NCBI GenBank assembly: GCA_022709525.1 | Contig: JAKLIQ010000001.1 | Coordinates: 3,797-67,796 of the forward strand | Direction of reading: 5' to 3' | Source of the DNA: Candidatus Omnitrophota bacterium | GTDB lineage: Bacteria; Omnitrophota; Omnitrophia; Omnitrophales; Aquincolibacteriaceae | DNA: 64,000 bases | Shown: positions 36,248-52,493 of the stretch, one piece after another | Layout of the letters: each line of letters begins with the position of its first letter | Position numbering within the stretch: position 1 is the first letter of the stretch | Program-made: the position numbers and the translations under genes | The notes under the pieces: generated by a model | What the model saw: only the letters and a program-made list of their open reading frames with translations | Database searches by the model: none | What the model was told of the DNA's origin: nothing

Positions 36248-36955
36248 TCAAAGGGTAAGCGTTCCGCCTTCGCGCAACACCGCGCAATTTTGGGGGTAGA
36301 TTTTTTTGAATAGGCTAGCCGCGACTGCGCCGGTGCAGTGGAGGGGGAGGACCTTTCGGACGCCGAGGGTTTGAAGTTCCGTGATGATCTTTTTGTTTTC
36401 TTCGTGCGTATTATCCTTCATGTGGAATCCGCCGCAAACTGCGTAGATCTTCTTTCCGAATATCTTGACGGCCCGCCTGACAATACGAACGATCCCCGGA
36501 TGGGCGCAGCCCGTGATCACTGAAAAGCCATTCCTTGATTTCACGACCAATGCTTGCTCATAAAGGATACCGCGTCCCGTGCCCGCCCGCATTTGGCCAA
36601 GAGAATAAATGTTGGGAGCGATCCGCCGGGTTTTACGGACTTCAACGGGGATACCACCATTCGCGCGAATCAAGCGCTTAAGTTCTTTTCCGGTCTTTGC
36701 GCAGATATAAACCTTTGTTCCCAGTTGCGTCCGGAGGAATCCTTCGAGCCCCGCGGTGTGGTCCCAATCCTCATGCGAGATCGCCACATGCTTGACACGC
36801 GAAAGGTCGATCTTGAAACGGCGGATATTTTTCCAGAAGATGTCCGAGCGGCCGAAGGTATCGAATAAAACATTGCCGACTAGAAAAGAAACGCCCCACC
36901 GGAGCGCTTTCCGCTCCCGCTTAGTCGATCCTTCCGCGATGAGCCGCAGTTTCAT
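36248..36955 (-). CDS. MBL-fold metallo-hydrolase
   Basis: HxHxDH motif ISHEDWDHTAG; 235 aa. Confidence 0.7.
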   Translation of the reverse strand: MKLRLIAEGSTKRERKALRWGVSFLVGNVLFDTFGRSDIFWKNIRRFKIDLSRVKHVAISHEDWDHTAGLEGFLRTQLGTKVYICAKTGKELKRLIRANGGIPVEVRKTRRIAPNIYSLGQMRAGTGRGILYEQALVVKSRNGFSVITGCAHPGIVRIVRRAVKIFGKKIYAVCGGFHMKDNTHEENKKIITELQTLGVRKVLPLHCTGAVAASLFKKIYPQNCAVLREGGTLTL

Positions 36956-37311
36956 TTTCCTTCTATCGCTTCGGCGGCTTTTTCAACGCAGCCAACGCAT
37001 GGCAGCTTTTTCAGAGCTTTGATCTCCCGGCATTTCAGGGATCCCGCCGCGGAGCGCAGGTATTCCATGCTTTCCGGAGCCTGCCGGGGGAGGTGGTGTT
37101 CCAAAATACATTTGGCCGCGTAGAATGCGCCGCAGTATCCCCCGGGCGCCATGCCGCCGCCGCAGGCAGAAAGAATAGCGGCCCTTTTTTCATCCAAAGG
37201 GAACCGCTCCCGGAATGTCTCGGCGACGGATCGGGCGCAATTGAGCCGGGGCCGCCCGTTTTTCCCAAGAAAATAATCCTTGGCTTTCTCTTTCATAAAA
37301 ATCAGTGGCAA
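36952..37311 (-). CDS. C_GCAxxG_C_C family protein
   Basis: …LNCARSVAETF…ACGGGMAPGGYCGAF… is the characteristic Cys pattern. ATGA overlap downstream. Confidence 0.6.
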   Translation of the reverse strand: MPLIFMKEKAKDYFLGKNGRPRLNCARSVAETFRERFPLDEKRAAILSACGGGMAPGGYCGAFYAAKCILEHHLPRQAPESMEYLRSAAGSLKCREIKALKKLPCVGCVEKAAEAIEGK

Positions 37312-37667
37312 CCGTGCTCGGCGCAGGCGTTCGCGGCGGTCAATTCCGGCAGCCCGCCTTTCAGGAATTGCGCGATCAAGTGCTCAACGGTTCCCGGGAC
37401 GGCGCGATAAACCTTAATTCCGCCCTCGTTCAGCTTTTGAACGGCCCGCCCGCCCATTCCGCCGGTCACGACCACATCGATCTTTTTCCCGGCAAGAGCG
37501 CTCATGGGGTGGCACATGCCGTGAGAATGATGCTGGTTCGCATTATCGATGATCTCGGCCGTATTTTTGTCCGTGTCATAAACAGTAAAATAGGGTGCGC
37601 TTCCGAAATGTTCATAAACCTGCGCGGATTTTCCTTCTTTGGTTTGGGTGGGAATACAGATCCTCAT
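37302..37667 (-). CDS. NifB/NifX-family FeMo-cofactor-binding domain protein (Nitro_FeMo-Co)
   Basis: MRICIPT…VYEHFGSAPYFTVYD… …VVVTGGMGGRAVQKLNEGGIKVY…; 121 aa. Confidence 0.65.
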   Translation of the reverse strand: MRICIPTQTKEGKSAQVYEHFGSAPYFTVYDTDKNTAEIIDNANQHHSHGMCHPMSALAGKKIDVVVTGGMGGRAVQKLNEGGIKVYRAVPGTVEHLIAQFLKGGLPELTAANACAEHGCH

Positions 37668-38263
37668 AAGCTCCTCCTTTGGGCTATAAAAATTTGGTGA
37701 CAGGTATGACGGTAACTTTTTACGATGAAACCGTTTTTCAAAAGGTATTTTCTTAATGTTGAAAGCGGTATGGCGGGTGTTGCATGTTTTTTGCCCTCGC
37801 TTCGATGGACAAGATCCATGATCTTCATGCCTTTTCTATTAAGGTCTGCGAGCGTCAGGATTTTCCGCGCTACTCGCATCATTTCCCGGAGGCAGCGAAG
37901 AGGATTTTTGGCGTGATGAAAAAAATCCACCGAGATCACATGATCGAAGCTCCGGGTCCGGAAGGGGAGTTTTTCGGCGTTCATTTTGCGTAGCAATATG
38001 CGGCGGCCCGCTTTTGCTGTTGAAAGATGGATCTTCGCGGTAGCGAGCGCTTCCGGATCAAGATCAATGGAAATCGCACGGAGGTTCTTTTTCGCGAGGA
38101 GTTTGGTTAAATGTCCCTTACCGGTCCCGATCTCAAGGACCGTTCCATTCCGAATGCCGGATTTTTCCAAGATGTATTTTCGCGAAGCGGGGAGATCATA
38201 GCCATACCGTTTGAATTGGCCGATGCGCGTTGCCAGTTTTGACAGCACCGCTTTTTTCGTCAT
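37664..38263 (-). CDS. class I SAM-dependent methyltransferase
   Basis: Start MTKKAVL at 38263 overlaps the upstream stop (ATGA). Motif I VLEIGTGKGHLT. Confidence 0.7.
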   Translation of the reverse strand: MTKKAVLSKLATRIGQFKRYGYDLPASRKYILEKSGIRNGTVLEIGTGKGHLTKLLAKKNLRAISIDLDPEALATAKIHLSTAKAGRRILLRKMNAEKLPFRTRSFDHVISVDFFHHAKNPLRCLREMMRVARKILTLADLNRKGMKIMDLVHRSEGKKHATPAIPLSTLRKYLLKNGFIVKSYRHTCHQIFIAQRRSL

Positions 38264-38598
38264 GGTCTCCCTCTTTGTCTTTCGCGGCTTTGCCCCCGCG
38301 CCATGCCGGCCATGCGGACCGTTCCGCCATCGATCTTGAGCGCTTTTGCGTTCACGAGACAATCCGAGATTTTTTTGCGGGCTGATTCAATAATATTCCC
38401 AAAAGTTTGACGTGAAATGTTCATCTTTTTAGCAGCATCTTCTTGGTAAAGTCCTTCGAGGTCGGCAAGCCGGACAGCTTCAAATTCATCCACCGTAAGC
38501 AAGACCTCCTCAAGGGCGTCAACGGGAAGTCCTCTTGGTTTGAAATAATTCGTATCGGGTTTGCATCGCACGCGGCGGCACTTAAATGGCCTGGGCAT
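38260..38598 (-). CDS. DUF134 (UPF0251) HTH DNA-binding protein, paralog 1
   Basis: MPRPFKCRRVRCKPDTNYFKPRGLP…LTVDEFEAVRLADLEGLYQEDAAKKMNISRQTFGNIIESARKKISDCLVNAKALKIDGG is the canonical DUF134 pattern. Confidence 0.65.
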   Translation of the reverse strand: MPRPFKCRRVRCKPDTNYFKPRGLPVDALEEVLLTVDEFEAVRLADLEGLYQEDAAKKMNISRQTFGNIIESARKKISDCLVNAKALKIDGGTVRMAGMARGQSRERQRGRP

Positions 38599-38613
38599 AA
38601 AGTCCTTCTGGAG

Positions 38614-38633
38614 TTATTAGCATATGCCAATAA
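38614..38633. promoter_or_regulatory. candidate operator: 20-bp near-perfect palindrome TTATTAGCATATGCCAATAA immediately upstream of DUF134 paralog 1
   Basis: 7-6-7 palindrome centred on CATATG, 16 nt upstream of the DUF134 start codon. Closely related to the palindrome at 40923. Confidence 0.55.
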
Positions 38634-38863
38634 TATCGGCAAGAAATCCTTTTGTCAAGACATGGAGGCATTGGAAAAGCAGCGCGGAGCGGACATTTGG
38701 TTTGCGGACGCCGAAGGGAAACAGCGTTTCCTCGACAACCTGCTTCTTGAGGCGGGCCAGGCGCGCCGGGTCTGACCCCGGTCAAAGCATGACCCGGCTT
38801 GCTTCATGGAGAGGCGAATTTGAAACCATTGACAAATAGGAATGATTACTATATAGTAACTCC

Positions 38864-39301
38864 ATGAAAATCGAGCATGAAGCACTAAAAAGAATGTTTT
38901 ACGATAAATGCGCCGAGAATGGACTTAAGATCACTCCGCAGCGCTCGCTTATTTTCGATGAACTCTCCAAAGCAACGGATCACCCAACAGCTGACGCCAT
39001 CTACCAGCGTGTCCGCAAAAGATTATCGAATATTTCATTTGATACCGTTTACCGGACCCTCTTGTCATTTACCGAAATAGGTATCATTAGCCTCGTGGAA
39101 GGAACGGGCGAGCAGAAGCGTTTTGAGCCTAACCTGCATCGGCATCATCATTTTAGATGCATCAAATGCTACACCATTTTTGATTTCGAACACGATGCCT
39201 ATGACAATATTGCCGTTCCTGACGCGGTGCAGAAGCAGGGGGTCGTTATTAATAAGAGGGTCGTGCTGGAAGGCATTTGTTCAAAATGTAAGGGCAAATA
39301 A
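38864..39301 (+). CDS. Fur-family regulator, probably Zur (zinc uptake regulator)
   Basis: …HRHHHFRCIKCYTIFDFEH… and C-terminal CSKC. Low-GC gene. Perfect palindrome TTACTATATAGTAA 5 bp upstream of the ATG. Neighbours are zinc-related. Confidence 0.65.
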   Translation: MKIEHEALKRMFYDKCAENGLKITPQRSLIFDELSKATDHPTADAIYQRVRKRLSNISFDTVYRTLLSFTEIGIISLVEGTGEQKRFEPNLHRHHHFRCIKCYTIFDFEHDAYDNIAVPDAVQKQGVVINKRVVLEGICSKCKGK

Positions 39302-39321
39302 TATTTTTTTTGTCTATCGAG

Positions 39322-39336
39322 TCGTAATGATTACGA
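39322..39336. promoter_or_regulatory. Zur box (Firmicutes-type) TCGTAATGATTACGA
   Basis: Perfect 7-1-7 palindrome within gagTCGTAATGATTACGAttt, about 115 bp upstream of the PTPS-like gene. Matches the AAATCGTAATNATTACGATTT consensus. Confidence 0.6.
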
Positions 39337-39450
39337 TTTAGTATCGTAGCGCAAATTAAAGGAGGTGTTTGGCCGAGAAAATAAAGCGTGATCAGCCGCA
39401 GCAGTCAATAATATAAAAATAGAAATATCAACCCAAAGGAGATAACGATC

Positions 39451-39945
39451 ATGTCAAACGACAAGTACAGATCCATCGTAAAACTTGACTTCCAGTACGC
39501 GCACAGATTTATGAATTATCCCGGAGAGGCAAGCTATCTTCATGGACATTCGGGATATCTAACGATTGAAATTGAAGGGGAGTTAAATAAACATAATTAT
39601 GCCCACCCTGTAAAAGAGGCGCAAAAATTAGCATGGGCAGTAGCCGATAACTTCCACCATGGAACGATTTTTCAAGAAGGGGATCCCTTACTTGATTTAG
39701 TTCTGAAGGGATATGAGCAAACAGGAATGAAGGGCACAACAAATAGATTTGGGACACCTGCGAAAGCTCTCAACCACGAGCTGGTGAAATCGTTTCCTGA
39801 AAGCAGAGTCGCTGTCAGCAAAGGCCCATCTACCTGCGAATGGTTTTGTACGGTATTCTATGAACTATTGAAAGACAAGTTGAATATCAAGAAAGTAGAA
39901 TTCCGTTCTTCTTCGCTGAACTGCGCATCAAGAGAGTTTAATTAA
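39451..39945 (+). CDS. 6-pyruvoyl-tetrahydropterin synthase (PTPS/QueD) family protein, atypical (no Cys before HGH)
   Basis: …DFQYAHRFMNYPGEASYLHGHSGYLTIEIEGE… aligns with the QueD FEAAHRL…CGRLHGHSF… block, but has Ser/Glu where the catalytic Cys would be. Low GC; RBS AAAGGAG. Confidence 0.55.
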   Translation: MSNDKYRSIVKLDFQYAHRFMNYPGEASYLHGHSGYLTIEIEGELNKHNYAHPVKEAQKLAWAVADNFHHGTIFQEGDPLLDLVLKGYEQTGMKGTTNRFGTPAKALNHELVKSFPESRVAVSKGPSTCEWFCTVFYELLKDKLNIKKVEFRSSSLNCASREFN

Positions 39946-40027
39946 AAAAAGATTATTGGTCTGGCAACCTAAAAGAAAAGCCGGGGACAGGCATCCCGCC
40001 TTTGTGGCGGTGGGATGTCTGTCCCTG

Positions 40028-40843
40028 TTACTTTCCGAACGCGACGTCGAGGAGCATCATGAGGGCGAAGCCGAGGATGGTCCCTGTGGTTGCGAGGTCG
40101 CCGTTCCCGTTCTGCTGGGATTCGGGGATCACTTCCTCGACTACAACGAAGATCATGGCCCCGGCGGCGAACGCGAGCGCGTAAGGGAGGAGCGGTTGGA
40201 CGATCATCACGACCGCGGCGCCGGTCACGGCTGCAACCGGCTCTACGACTCCTGAAAGCCAGCCGTACCAAAAACTTTTTCCCTTAGAAAACCCGTCCCG
40301 GTGGAGCGGAAAAGAGACCGCAAGCCCTTCCGGAAAGTTCTGGATCCCGATGCCGACCGCGAGAGCCAAGGCGGCCATCATGGATATGGAATGCGATGCC
40401 GCTCCTGTGGACCCAAAGGCGACCCCGACCGCGAGCCCTTCCGGGATATTGTGGATCGTCAGCGCCAGGACTAACAGCGTGCATTTCGGCCAGCCGGTTT
40501 TGATGCCCTCGATCTTTTCATCCGGCATCAGGGGGTGGAGATGGGGGAGGATCTTGTCGATCAAACGGAAAAAAGCGGCGCCGAGAAGAAAACCGATCAG
40601 AGCCGGAAGCCACGGGATCATACCTTGTTCTTCGGCCATTTCGATCGAAGGCGCCAGAAGCGACCAGAAGCTCGCCGCGATCATGATGCCGGCGGCGAAG
40701 CCAAGCATCACATCGAGGATCTTCTGGTTGATCCGCCTAAAAATAAAGATCGTGGCCGCGCCGAGCCCGGTCATGGCCCAGGTGAAAAGACCGGCCAGTA
40801 GCGCAGCGGTTACAGGATGAAGTCCCTTCAAGAGAGCTTCCAT
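40028..40843 (-). CDS. zupT: ZIP-family zinc transporter
   Basis: …HNIPEGLAVGVAF… and …IQNFPEGLAVS… ZIP signatures. Start MEALLKGL at 40843 within ORF 40028..40861. Confidence 0.8.
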   Translation of the reverse strand: MEALLKGLHPVTAALLAGLFTWAMTGLGAATIFIFRRINQKILDVMLGFAAGIMIAASFWSLLAPSIEMAEEQGMIPWLPALIGFLLGAAFFRLIDKILPHLHPLMPDEKIEGIKTGWPKCTLLVLALTIHNIPEGLAVGVAFGSTGAASHSISMMAALALAVGIGIQNFPEGLAVSFPLHRDGFSKGKSFWYGWLSGVVEPVAAVTGAAVVMIVQPLLPYALAFAAGAMIFVVVEEVIPESQQNGNGDLATTGTILGFALMMLLDVAFGK

Positions 40844-40922
40844 GCGGCCATTACATCGCAATCAACCCTGTTTGTCAACCTGGCCCCAGACAAAAACTTG
40901 ACAGAAAGAAACCAGGCTATTA

Positions 40923-40942
40923 TTATGCACATATGTGCATAA
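40923..40942. promoter_or_regulatory. candidate operator: perfect 20-bp palindrome TTATGCACATATGTGCATAA upstream of DUF134 paralog 2 / acr3
   Basis: 7-6-7 palindrome centred on CATATG, flanked by TATTAT, 13 bp before the RBS AAGGAG of the DUF134 gene. Sits between divergent zupT and DUF134-acr3. Confidence 0.6.
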
Positions 40943-40955
40943 TTAAGGAGCGGCC

Positions 40956-41258
40956 ATGAGGCCCAAGAAAATAAGGCAGATCGGCTGTAAGCCCGGGGAT
41001 CGGTGTTTTCGCCCCGTTCATGTCCCCCGTAAAGATGTCGTTGTGACCAGGATCACGCTTGATGAGCTTGAGGCGCTCCGCCTCTGCGATGGAATGCGTC
41101 TTGAACAGAATGCCGCTGCCAGGAAGATGAAGGTTCACCGTTCCACCGTCTCGCGCATCCTCACTGCCGCCCGCAAAAAAGTCGCGAATGCACTTGTCCA
41201 CCACCACGGCATCAAGATTGAAGGTGGGCGCTGTAAGATGAAAGGAGAACGATCCTAA
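40956..41258 (+). CDS. DUF134 (UPF0251) HTH DNA-binding protein, paralog 2
   Basis: [91 protein letters not shown]. Stop/start overlap with acr3 (TAATG). Confidence 0.65.
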
Positions 41259-47353: not shown

Positions 47354-47638
47354 ATGGAATTTGATATCAAGAAAGTCGCGGAACTCGCCCGCCTGAACCT
47401 GAAGCCCGAAGAGCAGGCCAAACTTGAAAAAGACCTCAGCGCGATCCTCGATTATGTGAAAAAACTCGAGAAACTCGACACCTCCAAGGTCGAGCCCACA
47501 AGCCATGTCCTCGATATGGAGAATGTCTTCCGCGCGGACGAGGTAAAGCCTTCGGACGCCGCCGATAAAGCCCTCAAGCACGCCCCGCAGGCGGACGGCC
47601 GTTTCTTCAAAGTTCCAAAAATTGTGCAGCGAGACTGA
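47354..47638 (+). CDS. gatC: Asp/Glu-tRNA amidotransferase subunit C
   Basis: …[12 protein letters not shown]…L..IL.YV..L…DTS.VEPT. Confidence 0.85.
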
Positions 47639-47639
47639 T

Positions 47640-49061
47640 ATGGCAGACCTCTGCTCTCTTACTTTAAAGGAAGCCATCGAAGCCGCGAAAAAAGACGGCC
47701 CGGGTCCCCTGATCGACGCGTTCGCCAAAAGGGCGCAGGCCGTTAATCCCAAACTGAACGCGTTCCTGCGTTTTGATCCCTCAAAAATTGAAAATGGAAA
47801 AGGCGCGCCGCTTTATGGCGTCCCCATTTCCATCAAGGACAATATCTGTATCGACGGCAGGGAAGTGACCTGCGCCTCAAAGATCCTTGAAAAGCACGTG
47901 CCGCCCTATAACGCGACCGTGATCGAGAAATTAAAAACGGCCGGCGCCACGCTTTTCAGCCAGTGCAATATGGACGAGTTCGCGTTCGGCTCCTCCTGCG
48001 AAACGTCCGCGTTCGGGCCGTGTAAAAATCCGTGGGACCTGATGCGCGTGCCGGGTGGCTCAAGCGGCGGCTCCGCGGCCTCGGTCGCGGCAGACATGAC
48101 GGTCGCGGCGCTCGGGTCCGACACCGGAGGTTCGATCCGCCAGCCCGCGGCGCTTTGCGGCGTGGTCGGCGTCAAACCCACTTACGGCCGCGTGTCGCGT
48201 TACGGCCTCATCGCGTTCGGCTCCAGTTTTGATCAGATCGGACCGTTCGCCAAGACCGTGGAAGACGCGGCGATCCTGATGAATATCATCTCGGGCCATG
48301 ATCCCAAGGATTCCACCTCATCGCCCGAAAAGATGCCGGACCTGACGCAGGCGCTCAAGCGCGACGTAAAGGGTCTCAAGATCGGCCTCCCGAAGGAATA
48401 TTTCATCGAGGGGATCGACCCGGAAGTCGAAAAAAGCGTGCGCGCCGCAGCGGAGATCTATAAAAAGCTCGGCGCTGAGATCAAACAGGTCTCATTGCCG
48501 CATACCGAGCACTCGGTCGCGGTCTACTATATAGTAGCCGTCGCGGAGGCGAGCTCGAACCTCGGCCGCTTTGACGGCGTCGAATACGGACTTCGCGTGC
48601 CCACTAAAGACCTGCGGGAAATGTATTTTGAGACGCGCGACCGGGGATTCGGCCGGGAAGCCAAGCGCCGCATCCTGCTCGGCACGTTCGTCCTCTCGGC
48701 CGGATATTATGAGGCTTACTATTTAAAAGGACAGAAAGTCCGCACGCTCATCCGCCAGGATTTTGAAAAGGCGTTCAAGGAAGTCGATGTGATCCTTTCG
48801 CCCACATCACCCACGCCGGCCTTTAAGATCGGTGAAAAAGCCGCGGATCCGATCGCCATGTACTTGTCCGATATTTTCACGATCCCCGCCAATTTGGCGG
48901 GCATCCCCGCGATGTCCGTTCCGTGCGGATTCACAAGCGGCGGACTTCCGATCGGCCTCCAGCTCATGGCGCGCCCCTTTGATGAAGCCACCATGCTTCG
49001 CGCGGCCTATAGTTTTGAGCAGGAAACCGGCATCTACAAAAAGAAACCGAAGTTAGACTAG
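47640..49061 (+). CDS. gatA: Asp/Glu-tRNA amidotransferase subunit A
   Basis: Amidase signature …[13 protein letters not shown]…[13 protein letters not shown]…. The start at 47640 overlaps the gatC stop. Confidence 0.9.
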
Positions 49062-49594: not shown

Positions 49595-50008
49595 ATGGCC
49601 GAACGTAAAAATTTTCATCTGCTTTTTTGGGTCCTGCTGCCGGTCCTTATTCTGATCGCGGGGGTCCCGTTCTACACGGCGCATGCGTGGGATCTTAAGA
49701 ATATCGCGGCGGCTACGGGCCTCAGCGCGTTCTGCGCTTTGCTGGCACTTACGGTCTATGACGCTAAAAAATTCTCGTGGGCCGCGCGCGGCATGGCTTT
49801 TTTGGTGTTTCTACTCTTCGCGTTTTATCTGGGCAGCCAGGTCCTCCGGGGGATCGGGGCCCACACATGGTATCCGGAAGGGACAAGATCAACAGTCTCC
49901 GTTCCGAACGCCATCAAAGGATTCCTCGTTTTTGGTTTGCCATGTTTGATATACACCATTTTTGGAAACACTCTATTCAGCAAATGGGGTCATAAAAATA
50001 AAGTTTGA
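49595..50008 (+). CDS. hypothetical membrane protein (inside the insertion)
   Basis: Start MAERKNF behind GAGG; four predicted TM helices. Confidence 0.45.
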   Translation: MAERKNFHLLFWVLLPVLILIAGVPFYTAHAWDLKNIAAATGLSAFCALLALTVYDAKKFSWAARGMAFLVFLLFAFYLGSQVLRGIGAHTWYPEGTRSTVSVPNAIKGFLVFGLPCLIYTIFGNTLFSKWGHKNKV

Positions 50009-50080
50009 AAGAAACCGGCATCTACAAAAAGAAACCGAAATTATAAAAACAAACATAGTTTTTTAAAGTAATGTAAAAAT

Positions 50081-50929
50081 ATGATTGTATATAAATATGT
50101 TACTTCAGCTGGCGATGACATAATCAGAAATTTGAGAATTATGGTAAATAGCTCTCGAAGTTTTAATGATCCGTTCGAATTAATACCTGCCATAGAAAAT
50201 ATAACATCTGAACAGGTAAACCAGGCCGTGTTAAAAAACGATCATTATCTTCGGCATATTTATAAAATTGGGATAGCAAGTGGCAGAATTGAAAAATCTT
50301 ACGATCAGTTTAAACAAGAAAATCAAAATCCCGAAAGAAGCAAAATAGTTTCAAAAAATATGGCTCAAAATACCACTAAAAACATGCGAGCGACTGCTAA
50401 AAAAAGCCGAGAAGACGTCGACAGAGTTGCTTTGATGGCGTGTTTTTGCGGAGAAACCATTGATAATCATCATGAAATATTAATGTGGGCACATTACGCT
50501 GAAGGTTATAAGGGATTACGTATTGCCTTTGATTCAAATATGCTTAATAGTCCTTCCACGCCTTTAATAGAAATGAAATATAGCAAAGATAGATTGCGTC
50601 TCAATCCAATAGATTATTGGAAGAATGGCATCCAATCACTCAACAAATTTTACGGGGAAATGCTGACTGCTAAAAGCAGCGCATGGGCCTATGAGAATGA
50701 ATATAGATGGCTTGTGCCTGTCTCTTTGTGTAAAAAAGATGGTCGGTATTACTATGTTCCAATTGATTCGAAAGCGATTATTGGTATCGATTGTGGCGTT
50801 CAATGTTCAGAAGAACGTATTTCTTATATCAAAAAATTAGTTCAGTCCAATCTTGGGGAATCGACTTTTATTAGAAAAACTGTTATTGATGATTATGAAT
50901 ACAAACTTAAATACATCGATAGCATCTAA
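50081..50929 (+). CDS. DUF2971 family protein (low-GC, likely horizontally acquired)
   Basis: MIVYKYVTSAGDDIIRNLRI..NSSRSFNDPFE… and …MWAHYAEGYKGLRIAF…YENEYRW match the DUF2971 pattern. About 35% GC, against about 60% in the flanks. Confidence 0.6.
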   Translation: MIVYKYVTSAGDDIIRNLRIMVNSSRSFNDPFELIPAIENITSEQVNQAVLKNDHYLRHIYKIGIASGRIEKSYDQFKQENQNPERSKIVSKNMAQNTTKNMRATAKKSREDVDRVALMACFCGETIDNHHEILMWAHYAEGYKGLRIAFDSNMLNSPSTPLIEMKYSKDRLRLNPIDYWKNGIQSLNKFYGEMLTAKSSAWAYENEYRWLVPVSLCKKDGRYYYVPIDSKAIIGIDCGVQCSEERISYIKKLVQSNLGESTFIRKTVIDDYEYKLKYIDSI

Positions 50930-50972
50930 AATCTGCATTGAATAAACAGTAAAAGGAATAACAGGAAGAAAA

Positions 50973-52493
50973 ATGAACTACGAACCAGTCATTGGACTAG
51001 AAGTCCACGTACAGCTGAAGACGAAGAGCAAGATGTTCTGCGCTTGTTCCACGGAATTCGGTGTGGAAGGCAATAAGAACACATGTCCGGTGTGTCTCGG
51101 CTGGCCGGGATCGCTGCCGGTGGTGAATGAAACAGCGCTCAAGCTCGCGATCCGCGCGGGGCTAGCTCTCAATTGCAAAGTCGCAGAGCGGCTCAAGTTC
51201 GACCGGAAAAATTATTTCTATCCTGATCTTCCGAAAGCGTATCAGATCTCGCAATACGATATGCCGGTAAATGGGAAGGGGTTTGTGGATGTGGAAACCC
51301 AGACTACAGACCACAGACTACAGACCACAGCAAAAAACGAAAAAGAGCAAAGCGAAAAACAAAACTCCGAACTCCTTGCTCCTCGCTCTACGCTAAAAAG
51401 AATCGGGATCACGCGTGCGCACCTGGAAGAAGACGCCGGAAAACTTCTGCACGAGGGCATCGCGGACGGAAGCCTTGTCGATTACAACCGCGGCGGCATC
51501 CCGCTTCTTGAGATCGTCTCCGAGCCGGACCTCCGCAGCCCGCAGGAAGCGTACGATTACCTCACGGCGCTCAAGGCCATCCTTCAATATATAGAAGTGA
51601 GCGACTGCGATATGGAAAAGGGGAGTTTGCGCTGCGACGCGAACGTGTCCGTCCGGCCCGTAAGCCAGGAGAAATTCGGGACCAAGGTCGAGATCAAGAA
51701 CCTGAACTCCTTCAAGATGGTGCAGAAAGCGATCCAGTACGAGATCGAGCGGCAGACGGGGATCCTTGAAGATAAAGAAGCCGTTATCCAGGAAACGCGG
51801 CTTTGGGAGGACAAAAAAGGCGTGACGGTCTCGATGCGTTCCAAGGAAGAGGCGCACGACTACCGCTATTTTCCGGAGCCGGACCTTGTGCCGTTCACGT
51901 TGTCGCGCAAGACCGTGGAGGAGATCAAAAAGACACTGCCGGAGCTGCCCCTTGAGAGGGCGAAACGGTTCGTGAAAACCTTCGGCATTTCCGAATATGA
52001 CGCACAGGTCCTTTGTCAGGAGAAAAAACTCGCCGAATATTTTGAGGCATGCGTCAAAGAGGGCGCCGCCGCGAAATCCGCAAGCAACTGGATCCAGTCC
52101 GAGATCTTGGCCATTCTTAATGAAAAAAATTTATCCGTCGAAAATTTTCCGATCACAGCGGCAAGCACCGCAGGAACGATCCGCCTTATTGAAAAGGGAG
52201 CCATCAGCGGCAAGATCGCCAAAGAAGTTTACCGTGAAATGTTTGAGACCGGCAAAGACGCCGAAACGATCGTCAAAGAAAAAGGCCTGACGCAGGTCTC
52301 CGACACCGGTTTAATTGAAAAAGCCGTGGAAAAAGCCATCGCCGCGAACCCCGCCGCCGCCCAGGAATTCAAGGCCGGAAAACAAAAGGCCCTCGGCGCC
52401 CTGGTCGGTTTTGTGATGAAAGAGACCGCCGGCAAAGCCAATCCGAAGCTTGTTAATGAAATTCTCATTAACAAGCTCGGGACTCGTAGCTAG
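50973..52493 (+). CDS. gatB: Asp/Glu-tRNA amidotransferase subunit B (with an in-frame repeat-derived insertion)
   Basis: MNYEPVIGLEVHVQLKT.SKMFC…ISQYD…KRIGITRAHLEEDAGKL…. About 28 extra residues (TQTTDHRLQTTAKNEKEQSEKQNSELLAPRSTL) lie where B. subtilis GatB has VGGKT. Confidence 0.9.
   Translation: MNYEPVIGLEVHVQLKTKSKMFCACSTEFGVEGNKNTCPVCLGWPGSLPVVNETALKLAIRAGLALNCKVAERLKFDRKNYFYPDLPKAYQISQYDMPVNGKGFVDVETQTTDHRLQTTAKNEKEQSEKQNSELLAPRSTLKRIGITRAHLEEDAGKLLHEGIADGSLVDYNRGGIPLLEIVSEPDLRSPQEAYDYLTALKAILQYIEVSDCDMEKGSLRCDANVSVRPVSQEKFGTKVEIKNLNSFKMVQKAIQYEIERQTGILEDKEAVIQETRLWEDKKGVTVSMRSKEEAHDYRYFPEPDLVPFTLSRKTVEEIKKTLPELPLERAKRFVKTFGISEYDAQVLCQEKKLAEYFEACVKEGAAAKSASNWIQSEILAILNEKNLSVENFPITAASTAGTIRLIEKGAISGKIAKEVYREMFETGKDAETIVKEKGLTQVSDTGLIEKAVEKAIAANPAAAQEFKAGKQKALGALVGFVMKETAGKANPKLVNEILINKLGTRS

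Follow-up and report, generated by a model that had tools for sequence, protein, structure and literature searches.

The systems closest to the locus described here are of two kinds, namely PTPS-family enzymes placed under a Fur-family repressor, and the metal and peroxide sensors of the Fur family itself. An example of the first kind is QueD2 of the A. baumannii type, a Zur-regulated PTPS paralog that is recognized by the motif Cx4HGH, an invariant extra Cys18/His, a length of 190-200 or 275-300 aa, and a genomic context of Zur/COG0523 or folE/queE, and whose turnover requires its catalytic Cys (PMC9894224). Among the sensors, PerR is distinguished from Fur at position 104, where Fur has Glu and where the residue is reported to decide peroxide reactivity, and in the PerR3 protein of Bacillus licheniformis, which has Glu at position 85, His oxidation dependent on H2O2 still takes place (Kim et al. 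2016, PMC4866751). The sensing site of Zur uses Cys (Cys84 in Bacillus subtilis Zur, BsZur, and Cys76 in Mycobacterium tuberculosis Zur, MtZur) instead of an oxygen donor, and it has no equivalent of His37 (PMC4866751). Here, we analyze a stretch of 64,000 nucleotides (“the window”) from a Candidatus Omnitrophota bacterium (contig JAKLIQ010000001.1, positions 3,797 to 67,796 of the forward strand; assembly GCA_022709525.1), in which a cassette of ~1.15 kb (38829-39983; all coordinates are those of the window) carries two genes, one for a Fur-family regulator and one for an enzyme of the PTPS/QueD fold. In the literature searched, we found no PerR regulon containing a PTPS/QueD-like gene.

The original prediction for this locus was a zinc-starvation island composed of a Zur repressor, a zinc-sparing paralog, and zupT. 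Our analysis leads to a different reading. Most likely, the locus is a mobile stress cassette that is derepressed by peroxide, and we hold it rather probable that it joins a portable, autoregulated PerR-type switch to a thiol-independent PTPS-fold enzyme that serves anaerobes under oxidative, or possibly metal, stress. The comparisons of enzyme copies and their neighborhoods below draw on a homolog search with one genome per species, which returned 261 enzyme relatives, and the loci compared are the best 80.

Sensing site and operators of the regulator

The first gene of the cassette (38864-39301, plus strand) encodes a protein of 145 aa that matches Pfam FUR with an E value of 4e-28, which bears out the Fur-family assignment made from the sequence earlier. 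A gap-free alignment to B. subtilis PerR (BsPerR) places the sensing-site residues H37/D85/H91/H93/D104 of the latter on H40/E88/H94/H96/D107 of the cassette regulator, and two CxxC motifs (C99/C102 and C139/C142) make up a structural zinc site like the Cys4 site of PerR. BsPerR is also the best match among structures in the PDB (1.5e-17, vs 1.3e-11 for M. tuberculosis Zur). The top NCBIfam models are two PerR equivalogs (87 and 85 bits, vs 30 bits for Zur), with all of these scores lying under the curated cutoffs. JGI names the window regulator and its close homologs “peroxide stress response” Fur-family proteins, and NCBI names the window regulator “transcriptional repressor.”

The position of the Zur-defining Cys is occupied by Pro89 in the cassette regulator, and His40, part of a DHP motif, is retained. 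When 33 cassette regulators were aligned, none had a Cys in the RFEPNLH segment, His40 was invariant in all of them, and so was the equivalent of Asp104, although the proteins are only 32-89% identical to one another. In addition, a distant clade in which the pairing is kept (enzyme 50% and regulator 29% identical, with the two genes overlapping by 4 nt) has a regulator with the canonical PerR ligand set H/D/H/H/D. Judged by these residues and model scores, the regulator is PerR-like rather than Zur-like, and the Zur identity originally given to it is not supported.

With BsPerR and with PerR2 and PerR3 of B. licheniformis, the cassette regulator shares the fold, the Cys4 site, and a five-ligand site with Asp at position 104, and it has Glu at position 85 in common with PerR3. 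It further resembles BsPerR in its predicted autoregulation, in its AT-rich 7-1-7 operators placed over promoters, and in the Dps/ferritin-like and peroxiredoxin genes that appear as cargo or neighbors in sister cassettes. Unlike BsPerR, to which it is only ~30% identical, it has Arg64 at the place of Asn61 in the recognition helix, it is associated with the operator TAGTAATnATTACTA rather than TTATAATnATTATAA, it belongs to a mobile two-gene unit found across phyla and domains, and the cargo of that unit is a PTPS-fold enzyme.

Two of the residues just named leave room for another signal. Glu88 is the state of Fur at the Asp85 position, compatible with a role in sensing Fe or Mn, and Arg at the Asn61 position is a Fur-like state as well. 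Accordingly, one may think of a Fur/Mur-like repressor and of an iron-limitation cassette whose enzyme replaces an Fe(II)-dependent counterpart or serves metal economy, with no direct sensing of peroxide. FeoAB directly upstream in one locus (L004), feoB ~4 kb from the cassette in the window, and ferritin genes among the neighbors of other copies fit this explanation. However, the invariant Asp104 equivalent falls exactly where Fur has Glu, and in the distant partner clade the ligands are the canonical ones of PerR. It would be paradoxical for iron-loaded Fur to repress a ferritin/Dps-like cargo, whereas for PerR this is classical; peroxiredoxin, rubrerythrin, and desulfoferrodoxin genes also occur among the neighbors, and feoB has no operator inside the window. 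We regard an iron- or manganese-sensing cassette of this type as unlikely.

The operators form a recurrent design. A 7-1-7 inverted repeat with the consensus TAGTAATnATTACTA is found at both promoters in ~17 cassettes. In the window, the regulator promoter P1 (38829-38857, plus strand; 11/12 in the promoter scan) consists of the -35 element TTGACA (38829-38834), a 17-nt spacer, and the -10 element TATAGT (38852-38857), and the operator O1, TAGGAATGATTACTA (38837-38851), lies inside this spacer with one mismatch to the consensus. Sister cassettes have the conserved regulator promoter TTGACAAATAGTAATGATTACTATATAGTAAT, with the operator again occupying the spacer. The palindrome TTACTATATAGTAA pointed out in the original prediction is present (38846-38859), yet it is not itself the operator: it combines the right half-site of O1 with the -10 element TATAGT, which serves as a third half-site. 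Since the ATG of the regulator lies only 7 nt beyond the -10 element (6-10 nt past the promoter/operator sequence across cassettes), the regulator mRNA is probably leaderless.

The second operator, O2 (TCGTAATGATTACGA, 39322-39336), is a perfect 7-1-7 palindrome with two mismatches to the consensus, and its position 102-115 nt ahead of the enzyme ATG is kept in the ~17 cassettes. A weak promoter P2 (TTGTCT-16 nt-TACGAT, 39310-39337, plus strand) may be read from the sequence at this place, its putative -10 element being the right half of O2; it scores under the threshold of the promoter scan, and alternatively the enzyme gene may be transcribed by read-through from P1. The predicted arrangement of a Fur-family repressor with operators ahead of both genes appears sound in this respect.

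O2 is at the same time an exact match, with zero mismatches, to the Gram-positive/B. subtilis Zur consensus TCGTAATnATTACGA. This match speaks for the zinc-starvation island of the original prediction, in which low zinc would free a Zur repressor and the enzyme, a zinc-sparing paralog of the QueD2/FolE2 type, would need less zinc or another metal, with zupT as the third member. Zinc is scarce in sulfidic anoxic habitats, which suits such an island. In addition, zupT adjoins the cassette, one homolog lies beside two ZnuA genes and a DUF4198 gene, one downstream neighbor set contains ZnuA and ABC-3, and Zur-regulated QueD2 paralogs exist (PMC9894224).

The exact box at O2 was thus correctly reported, but it is a local variant of the cassette operator TAGTAATnATTACTA rather than a Firmicutes Zur box. 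The O2 equivalents of sister cassettes read TAGTAAT..ATTACTA, TGGTAAT.., or TAATAAT.., and the CG of the window O2 is not conserved among them; therefore, the resemblance to a Zur box is not a conserved feature. The cassette operator resembles predicted PerR boxes of Desulfovibrio, AATAGGAATGGTTATTATT and ATCAGTAATTGTTACTGGT, as much as it does the Bacillus Zur box, in that their AG(G/T)AATnnTTACT core is also present in O1 as aATAGGAATGATTACTAta (Rodionov et al. 2004, PMC545781). The Desulfovibrio boxes differ in being predictions for other regulators, with rubrerythrin, AhpC, and a hypothetical gene as targets and no PTPS-like target reported (PMC545781).

The link to zupT is not supported either. 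This gene for a ZupT/ZIP transporter (40028-40861, minus strand; 59% GC) lies outside the cassette, has host-like guanine-plus-cytosine (GC) content, and is convergent with the PTPS-like gene, tail to tail, rather than divergent as had been stated. It has no operator upstream, its place beside the cassette is not conserved, and it is present in the closest relative, which has no cassette. Of the 134 genes examined in the second-nearest flanking position of the loci compared, only 2 are ZIP genes; ZIP and ZnuA turn up rarely among ~280 neighbors, and COG0523 is in no neighbor-set listing. Together with the sensing site and model scores of the regulator, and with an enzyme that retains three zinc ligands and departs from QueD2 in every criterion (see below), these results make a zinc-starvation island highly improbable.

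A scan of the window with the operator consensus, allowing up to three mismatches, returned O1 and O2 only, with no site at zupT or feoB. The original prediction had looked to other boxes of this type in the genome; at this tolerance to TAGTAATnATTACTA, the 64-kb window contains none beyond O1 and O2. When TCGTAATGATTACGA-type matches are counted with up to three mismatches, the window has 7, vs 1.9 expected from shuffles. The palindrome CTACTATATAGTAG at 48524 was considered as a third operator and rejected as a chance occurrence, as it lies inside the coding region of gatA.

O2 is followed by a leader of ~110 nt whose sequence is conserved across cassettes. The leader contains an invariant, Shine-Dalgarno-like AAGGAGGTG (39358-39366, plus strand; likewise placed in ~17 loci, among them L052, L037, and L004), ~20 nt past O2 and ~85 nt 5′ of the true enzyme start, whose own Shine-Dalgarno sequence, AAAGGAG (39435-39441, plus strand), is kept in all cassettes. 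Speculatively, AAGGAGGTG may be a 5′ stabilizer of the STAB-SD type or a ribosome standby site. A riboswitch or known RNA was rejected: comparison of the leader (150 nt) with Rfam at permissive E values gave only noise, RNAalifold found zero conserved pairs in 16 leaders, and the folding of the window leader is no different from that of shuffles (z = 0.11). A leader peptide after AAGGAGGTG was rejected as well, given the lack of a conserved start and the in-frame stops in two cassettes (L077 and L034).

A PTPS-family enzyme and its neighbors

The second gene (39451-39945, plus strand) encodes a metalloenzyme of 164 aa with the PTPS/QueD fold (T-fold), which matches PF01242 with an E value of 7e-14 (52 bits vs a cutoff of 22) and reaches 38 bits against the QueD model TIGR03367, whose cutoff is 89. 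The invariants of the family are Q15-Y-A-H18-R-F, E26-A27-x-x-L30-H31-G32-H33, H70 (preceded by D or H), D78-P79, and E130. All three His metal ligands (H18/H31/H33), the D/H-His dyad, and the pterin-anchoring E130 are kept, and in a profile alignment to Escherichia coli QueD, the catalytic Cys27 is matched by Ala27 and Lys26 by Glu26. The original description of a conserved HGH and a missing catalytic Cys (EASYLHGH) is thereby confirmed, with Ala27 invariant in the family at the catalytic position. The protein is not Cys-less, as had been claimed, for it has three Cys, including C129 beside E130; only the canonical catalytic one is absent.

The motif sets the enzyme apart from the described types. 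Its E26-A-S-Y-L-H31-G-H (EAxxLHGH in the family) amounts to Ex4HGH, compared with Cx3HGH in QueD, Cx4HGH in QueD2, Cx5HGH in PTPS-II, ExxHGH in PTPS-III, and FGPAQ in PTPS-IV, and the last signature was not found in the enzyme or in the family alignment. By this measure, the enzyme is a distinct PTPS subfamily, which could be PTPS-V or be left unclassified. The family is small, with 51 cluster representatives at ≤1e-30 among 1.8 billion proteins, mostly fragments. A distant branch (~45% identical) has a C-terminal CPxCG...CPKCG zinc-ribbon tail and lacks Cys129; it is found in gut Firmicutes, including a plasmid record of Clostridium perfringens (L092, L097, L098).

Like Zur-regulated QueD2 (PMC9894224), the enzyme is a PTPS paralog under a Fur-family repressor, keeps HGH and the third His, and has a residue four positions ahead of HGH in the spacing of Cx4HGH. 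That residue, however, is Glu where QueD2 has the Cys of turnover. No Cys or His occurs between H18 and E26, so that the extra second-site residue (Cys18/His) of QueD2 is missing; the chain, at 164 aa, is shorter, COG0523, folE, and queE are not among the neighbors, and the regulator is not Zur-like. The QueD2-type zinc paralog of the original prediction is contradicted by the motif, the extra Cys/His, and the chain length alike (PMC9894224). PTPS-III of Plasmodium and bacteria, which replaces FolB in folate synthesis, shares the PTPS fold and a Glu in place of Cys as candidate base near HGH. In the cassette enzyme, this Glu is at -1 of the Cys site (Ex4HGH), while in PTPS-III it is at +1 (ExxHGH), and the enzyme further differs in its lack of fol clustering, in an insertion of ~40 residues relative to QueD, and in its PerR-type control.

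The AlphaFold (AF2) model of the enzyme (predicted local distance difference test score 93.9) has the T-fold, with the insertion at approximately residues 76-118. Foldseek ranks WS1659 of Wolinella succinogenes (3jyg, from structural genomics) first, followed by structures of QueD, PTPS, and QueD2. The alignment to WS1659 (E 9.6e-10, TMq 0.73) spans the insertion; the two proteins are only 16% identical. The retained metal ligands and pterin-anchoring Glu of the enzyme suggest a substrate of the guanine or pterin type and metal-assisted chemistry in which a carboxylate, not a thiol, is the base.

Both NCBI (PGAP) and JGI name the enzyme 6-carboxytetrahydropterin synthase, and one may ask whether it is simply an ordinary QueD of queuosine or archaeosine synthesis with a divergent active-site loop, placed next to a Fur gene by coincidence. 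In favor of this are the annotation, the conserved metal ligands and pterin-anchoring Glu, and the reported promiscuity of PTPS-I enzymes (PMC5041015). Against it, the QueD model score is 38 bits where the cutoff is 89, the catalytic Cys, which QueD2 requires for turnover, is an invariant Ala, and the pairing with Fur persists as enzyme identity falls from 97% to 50%. Moreover, no queC, queE, queF, folE/fol, or COG0523 gene is among the Pfam families listed for the ~280 flanking genes of the 80 loci. The enzyme does not group with QueD beside queC/queE, the outcome that would have spoken for an ordinary QueD, as judged from the model score and these neighbors, and we consider the explanation improbable. 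The naming is inconsistent within the enzyme's own 90% identity cluster, in which 6-carboxytetrahydropterin synthase is the name of every named member except MBM3244932.1, a “rubredoxin” according to NCBI.

The Fur-family regulator is, by comparison, the sole recurrent family among the upstream neighbors of the enzyme gene (32 of 76), with four more Fur genes downstream. Other neighbors are sporadic and include ferritin, rubrerythrin, AhpC/peroxiredoxin, desulfoferrodoxin with rubredoxin, and nitroreductase, or are rarer still, as in the case of the metal transporters ZIP, ZnuA, Feo, and ECF. In one locus (L070), the gene order is PTPS-like, Fur, and 1-Cys peroxiredoxin. In another (L103, 1430-2556), where the regulator is 50% identical, the same -35/operator/-10 design drives a ferritin/Dps-like gene that lies just upstream of a ZIP transporter gene. 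The ferritin/Dps-like gene, a classical type of PerR target, takes the place of the PTPS-like gene there, which hints at a family of PerR-type cassettes whose cargo can be exchanged. The main cargo, the PTPS-like enzyme, has no established role in peroxide defense; some of its copies adjoin AhpC-type peroxiredoxin, rubrerythrin, or desulfoferrodoxin genes.

Mobility, host range, and selection

The cassette was acquired horizontally, as had been proposed from its composition and as we find from its GC contrast, its confined similarity between genomes, and a cassette-less relative with the same flanks. The low GC of the interval that first drew attention (38864-39945) is real, at 42.1%, with 41.5% for the whole cassette, and values this low are reached in just 1.5% of same-sized windows. 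The surroundings are less extreme than the ~60% originally given, since the remainder of the window has 53.3% GC and only zupT reaches 59%. In most hosts, the GC of the enzyme gene is 36-42%. A second, stronger low-GC island lies at ~49900-51050 (34.6% GC, 30% at third codon positions) between gatA (47622-49061) and gatB (50973-52493), where a gene for a 282-aa DUF2971 protein (50081-50929) looks like another horizontally acquired gene, splitting gatA and gatB.

In genomes that share the regulator gene, nucleotide similarity to the window begins at 38828/38829, that is, at the -35 element TTGACA, and ends at 39950-39983. The sequence upstream of TTGACA is unrelated in ~15 other genomes, and the flanks are unrelated between genomes. 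At the 3′ end, a tail beginning aaaaagattattggtctggcaacctaaaag (39946-39983, plus strand) is common to the cassettes of three loci (L037, L004, and L013), with homology stopping near 39983. On the host side of this junction, between the convergent enzyme gene and zupT, a GC-rich hairpin with a 19-bp stem (39982-40027) is likely a bidirectional terminator. Three close homologs of the regulator, on contigs of 0.3-4.3 Mb, are likewise found with the enzyme as a pair in unrelated surroundings, where the adjoining genes are those of a type I restriction enzyme, of NADH-oxidoreductase subunits, or of a DUF134/NifX-like cluster.

Of the loci related to the host locus, the closest (L099) has the same flanks and no cassette, with ZupT 89% identical and both DUF134 proteins 75-79% identical. 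In the slot of the cassette (L099, 4847-8441), it has an ArsR regulator, an 819-aa fusion of a pyridine-nucleotide disulfide oxidoreductase (CoA-disulfide-reductase-like) with rhodanese, TusA, and DsrE, and a 1-Cys peroxiredoxin. Because a different redox module is held there between zupT and the DUF134 gene, the site looks like a variable slot for stress genes.

Beside the cassette, the window has a cluster of DUF134, NifX-like Nitro_FeMo-Co, metallo-beta-lactamase-fold, S-adenosylmethionine (SAM) methyltransferase, and C_GCAxxG_C_C genes (36248-38598), and a similar cluster lies by the cassette of another locus (L181, 1066-3443), in another orientation and with DsrE replacing C_GCAxxG_C_C. 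The two DUF134 genes of the window (38260-38598, minus strand, and 40956-41258, plus strand) have strong TTGACA-17-TATTAT promoters (38610-38640 and 40915-40945), and the second of these heads the operon of an ACR3-type (SBF family) transporter. An AT-rich palindrome lies over each promoter (TTATTAGCATATGCCAATAA and ATTATGCACATATGTGCATAAT, respectively), and the DUF134 proteins may use these palindromes as autoregulatory operators.

Copies of the enzyme that are 88-97% identical occur in metagenome-assembled genomes (MAGs) of Omnitrophota, Planctomycetota, Spirochaetota, Bacteroidota, Fibrobacterota, Cloacimonadota, Myxococcota, and Izemoplasmatales, and further in Endomicrobia (on a complete 1.8-Mb chromosome, OY762939.1), in several lineages of Patescibacteria, and in archaea. 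One archaeal contig has an archaeal-type alanyl-tRNA synthetase near a 92.6% identical enzyme copy, and a second has archaeal elongation factor 2 (aEF-2) near a copy with 59% identity.

For 52 full-length copies of the 88-97% identity group, the median synonymous divergence (dS) is 1.06 and the median nonsynonymous divergence (dN) is 0.046, with dN/dS at 0.04 and a quarter of the pairs saturated. With synonymous sites this near to saturation, we reject the idea that the high identity reflects very recent transfer; it is instead explained by very strong purifying selection (omega 0.04). At the same time, the window copy is separated from those in other phyla or in Methanosarcinales by a dS of only 0.4-1.1, and transfer is therefore far younger than those lineages.

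As for the vehicle, junction comparison and Pfam counts of neighbors revealed neither an integrase or transposase gene nor repeats at the ends of the cassette. A phage was rejected, as IMG/VR contains no relatives, and so was a plasmid, for which only zinc-ribbon variants of 43-46% identity were found (C. perfringens, Subdoligranulum, and Parabacteroides records), in uninformative contexts. A Firmicute donor, which the original prediction had raised as a possibility, is plausible but unproven; it is plausible because of the low GC, the strong Shine-Dalgarno sequence, and the more divergent family members in Clostridia.

A model for the cassette and its meaning

The model builds on the observed anatomy, family assignments, ligand patterns, and operator conservation, on the mobility and conservation of the cassette, and on the lack of que, fol, or zinc linkage; from these we infer the signal sensed, the mechanism of repression, and the reaction catalyzed. 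The regulator, carrying Fe(II) or Mn(II), would bind the 7-1-7 operators (TAGTAATnATTACTA) over its own promoter (O1) and over the promoter/leader of the second gene (O2), so that both genes would be kept off by the metal-loaded repressor. The repressor would leave its sites, and both genes would be turned on, when peroxide oxidizes its His ligands in a metal-catalyzed reaction or when the metal is lost. The enzyme, in turn, would take a pterin- or guanine-like molecule as its substrate, for example 7,8-dihydroneopterin triphosphate (H2NTP), with Glu as the base. Because it would be thiol-independent, with Ala27 at the Cys position and Glu in the role of base, we propose that it is insensitive to oxidants and is used by anaerobes in oxidative stress.

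Several points weigh against this model, in addition to the Fur-like residues of the regulator and the exact Zur match of O2 described above. The connection between the regulator clade and peroxide is drawn from sequence comparison. A Fur gene adjoins only about half of the enzyme genes, and metal-uptake genes lie near some copies: zupT and feoB in the window, a ZnuA pair with DUF4198 in L096, an ECF/CbiQ transporter in L010, and FeoAB in L004. The semi-conserved Cys129 could be a relocated catalytic thiol. Genomes of the candidate phyla radiation (CPR) and of DPANN usually lack pterin pathways, and the presence of the cassette in them counts against H2NTP as the substrate, provided that this lack is borne out by the whole genomes. 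Finally, errors in the binning of MAGs may inflate the host range, a concern that is lessened, though not dispelled, by the long contigs and the archaeal markers.

A further step would be to regard the enzyme as an unrecognized, stand-alone enzyme of oxidative-stress defense or repair, which is carried with a portable PerR switch, acts on a ubiquitous guanine- or pterin-type molecule outside queuosine and folate synthesis, and makes the cassette one of the most exchanged and conserved in anaerobic bacteria, CPR, and archaea. We put this forward tentatively, as a possibility that is more doubtful than not. If true, the cassette would be comparable to rubrerythrin or superoxide reductase.

We note that the QueD label assigned by annotation pipelines fails the criteria for QueD, and through it a probably wrong function spreads to hundreds of genomes. 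The PTPS superfamily already holds several subfamilies without an assigned function, and the extreme conservation of this one, along with its presence in the reduced genomes of CPR and DPANN, makes its substrate a well-defined and testable question. If the cassette is responsive to peroxide, it would add a new enzyme class to the limited oxygen-defense toolkit of strict anaerobes, and its parts (a leaderless regulator mRNA, two operators, a strong Shine-Dalgarno sequence, and a terminator) would constitute a complete unit of sensor and effector that works across bacterial phyla and archaea.

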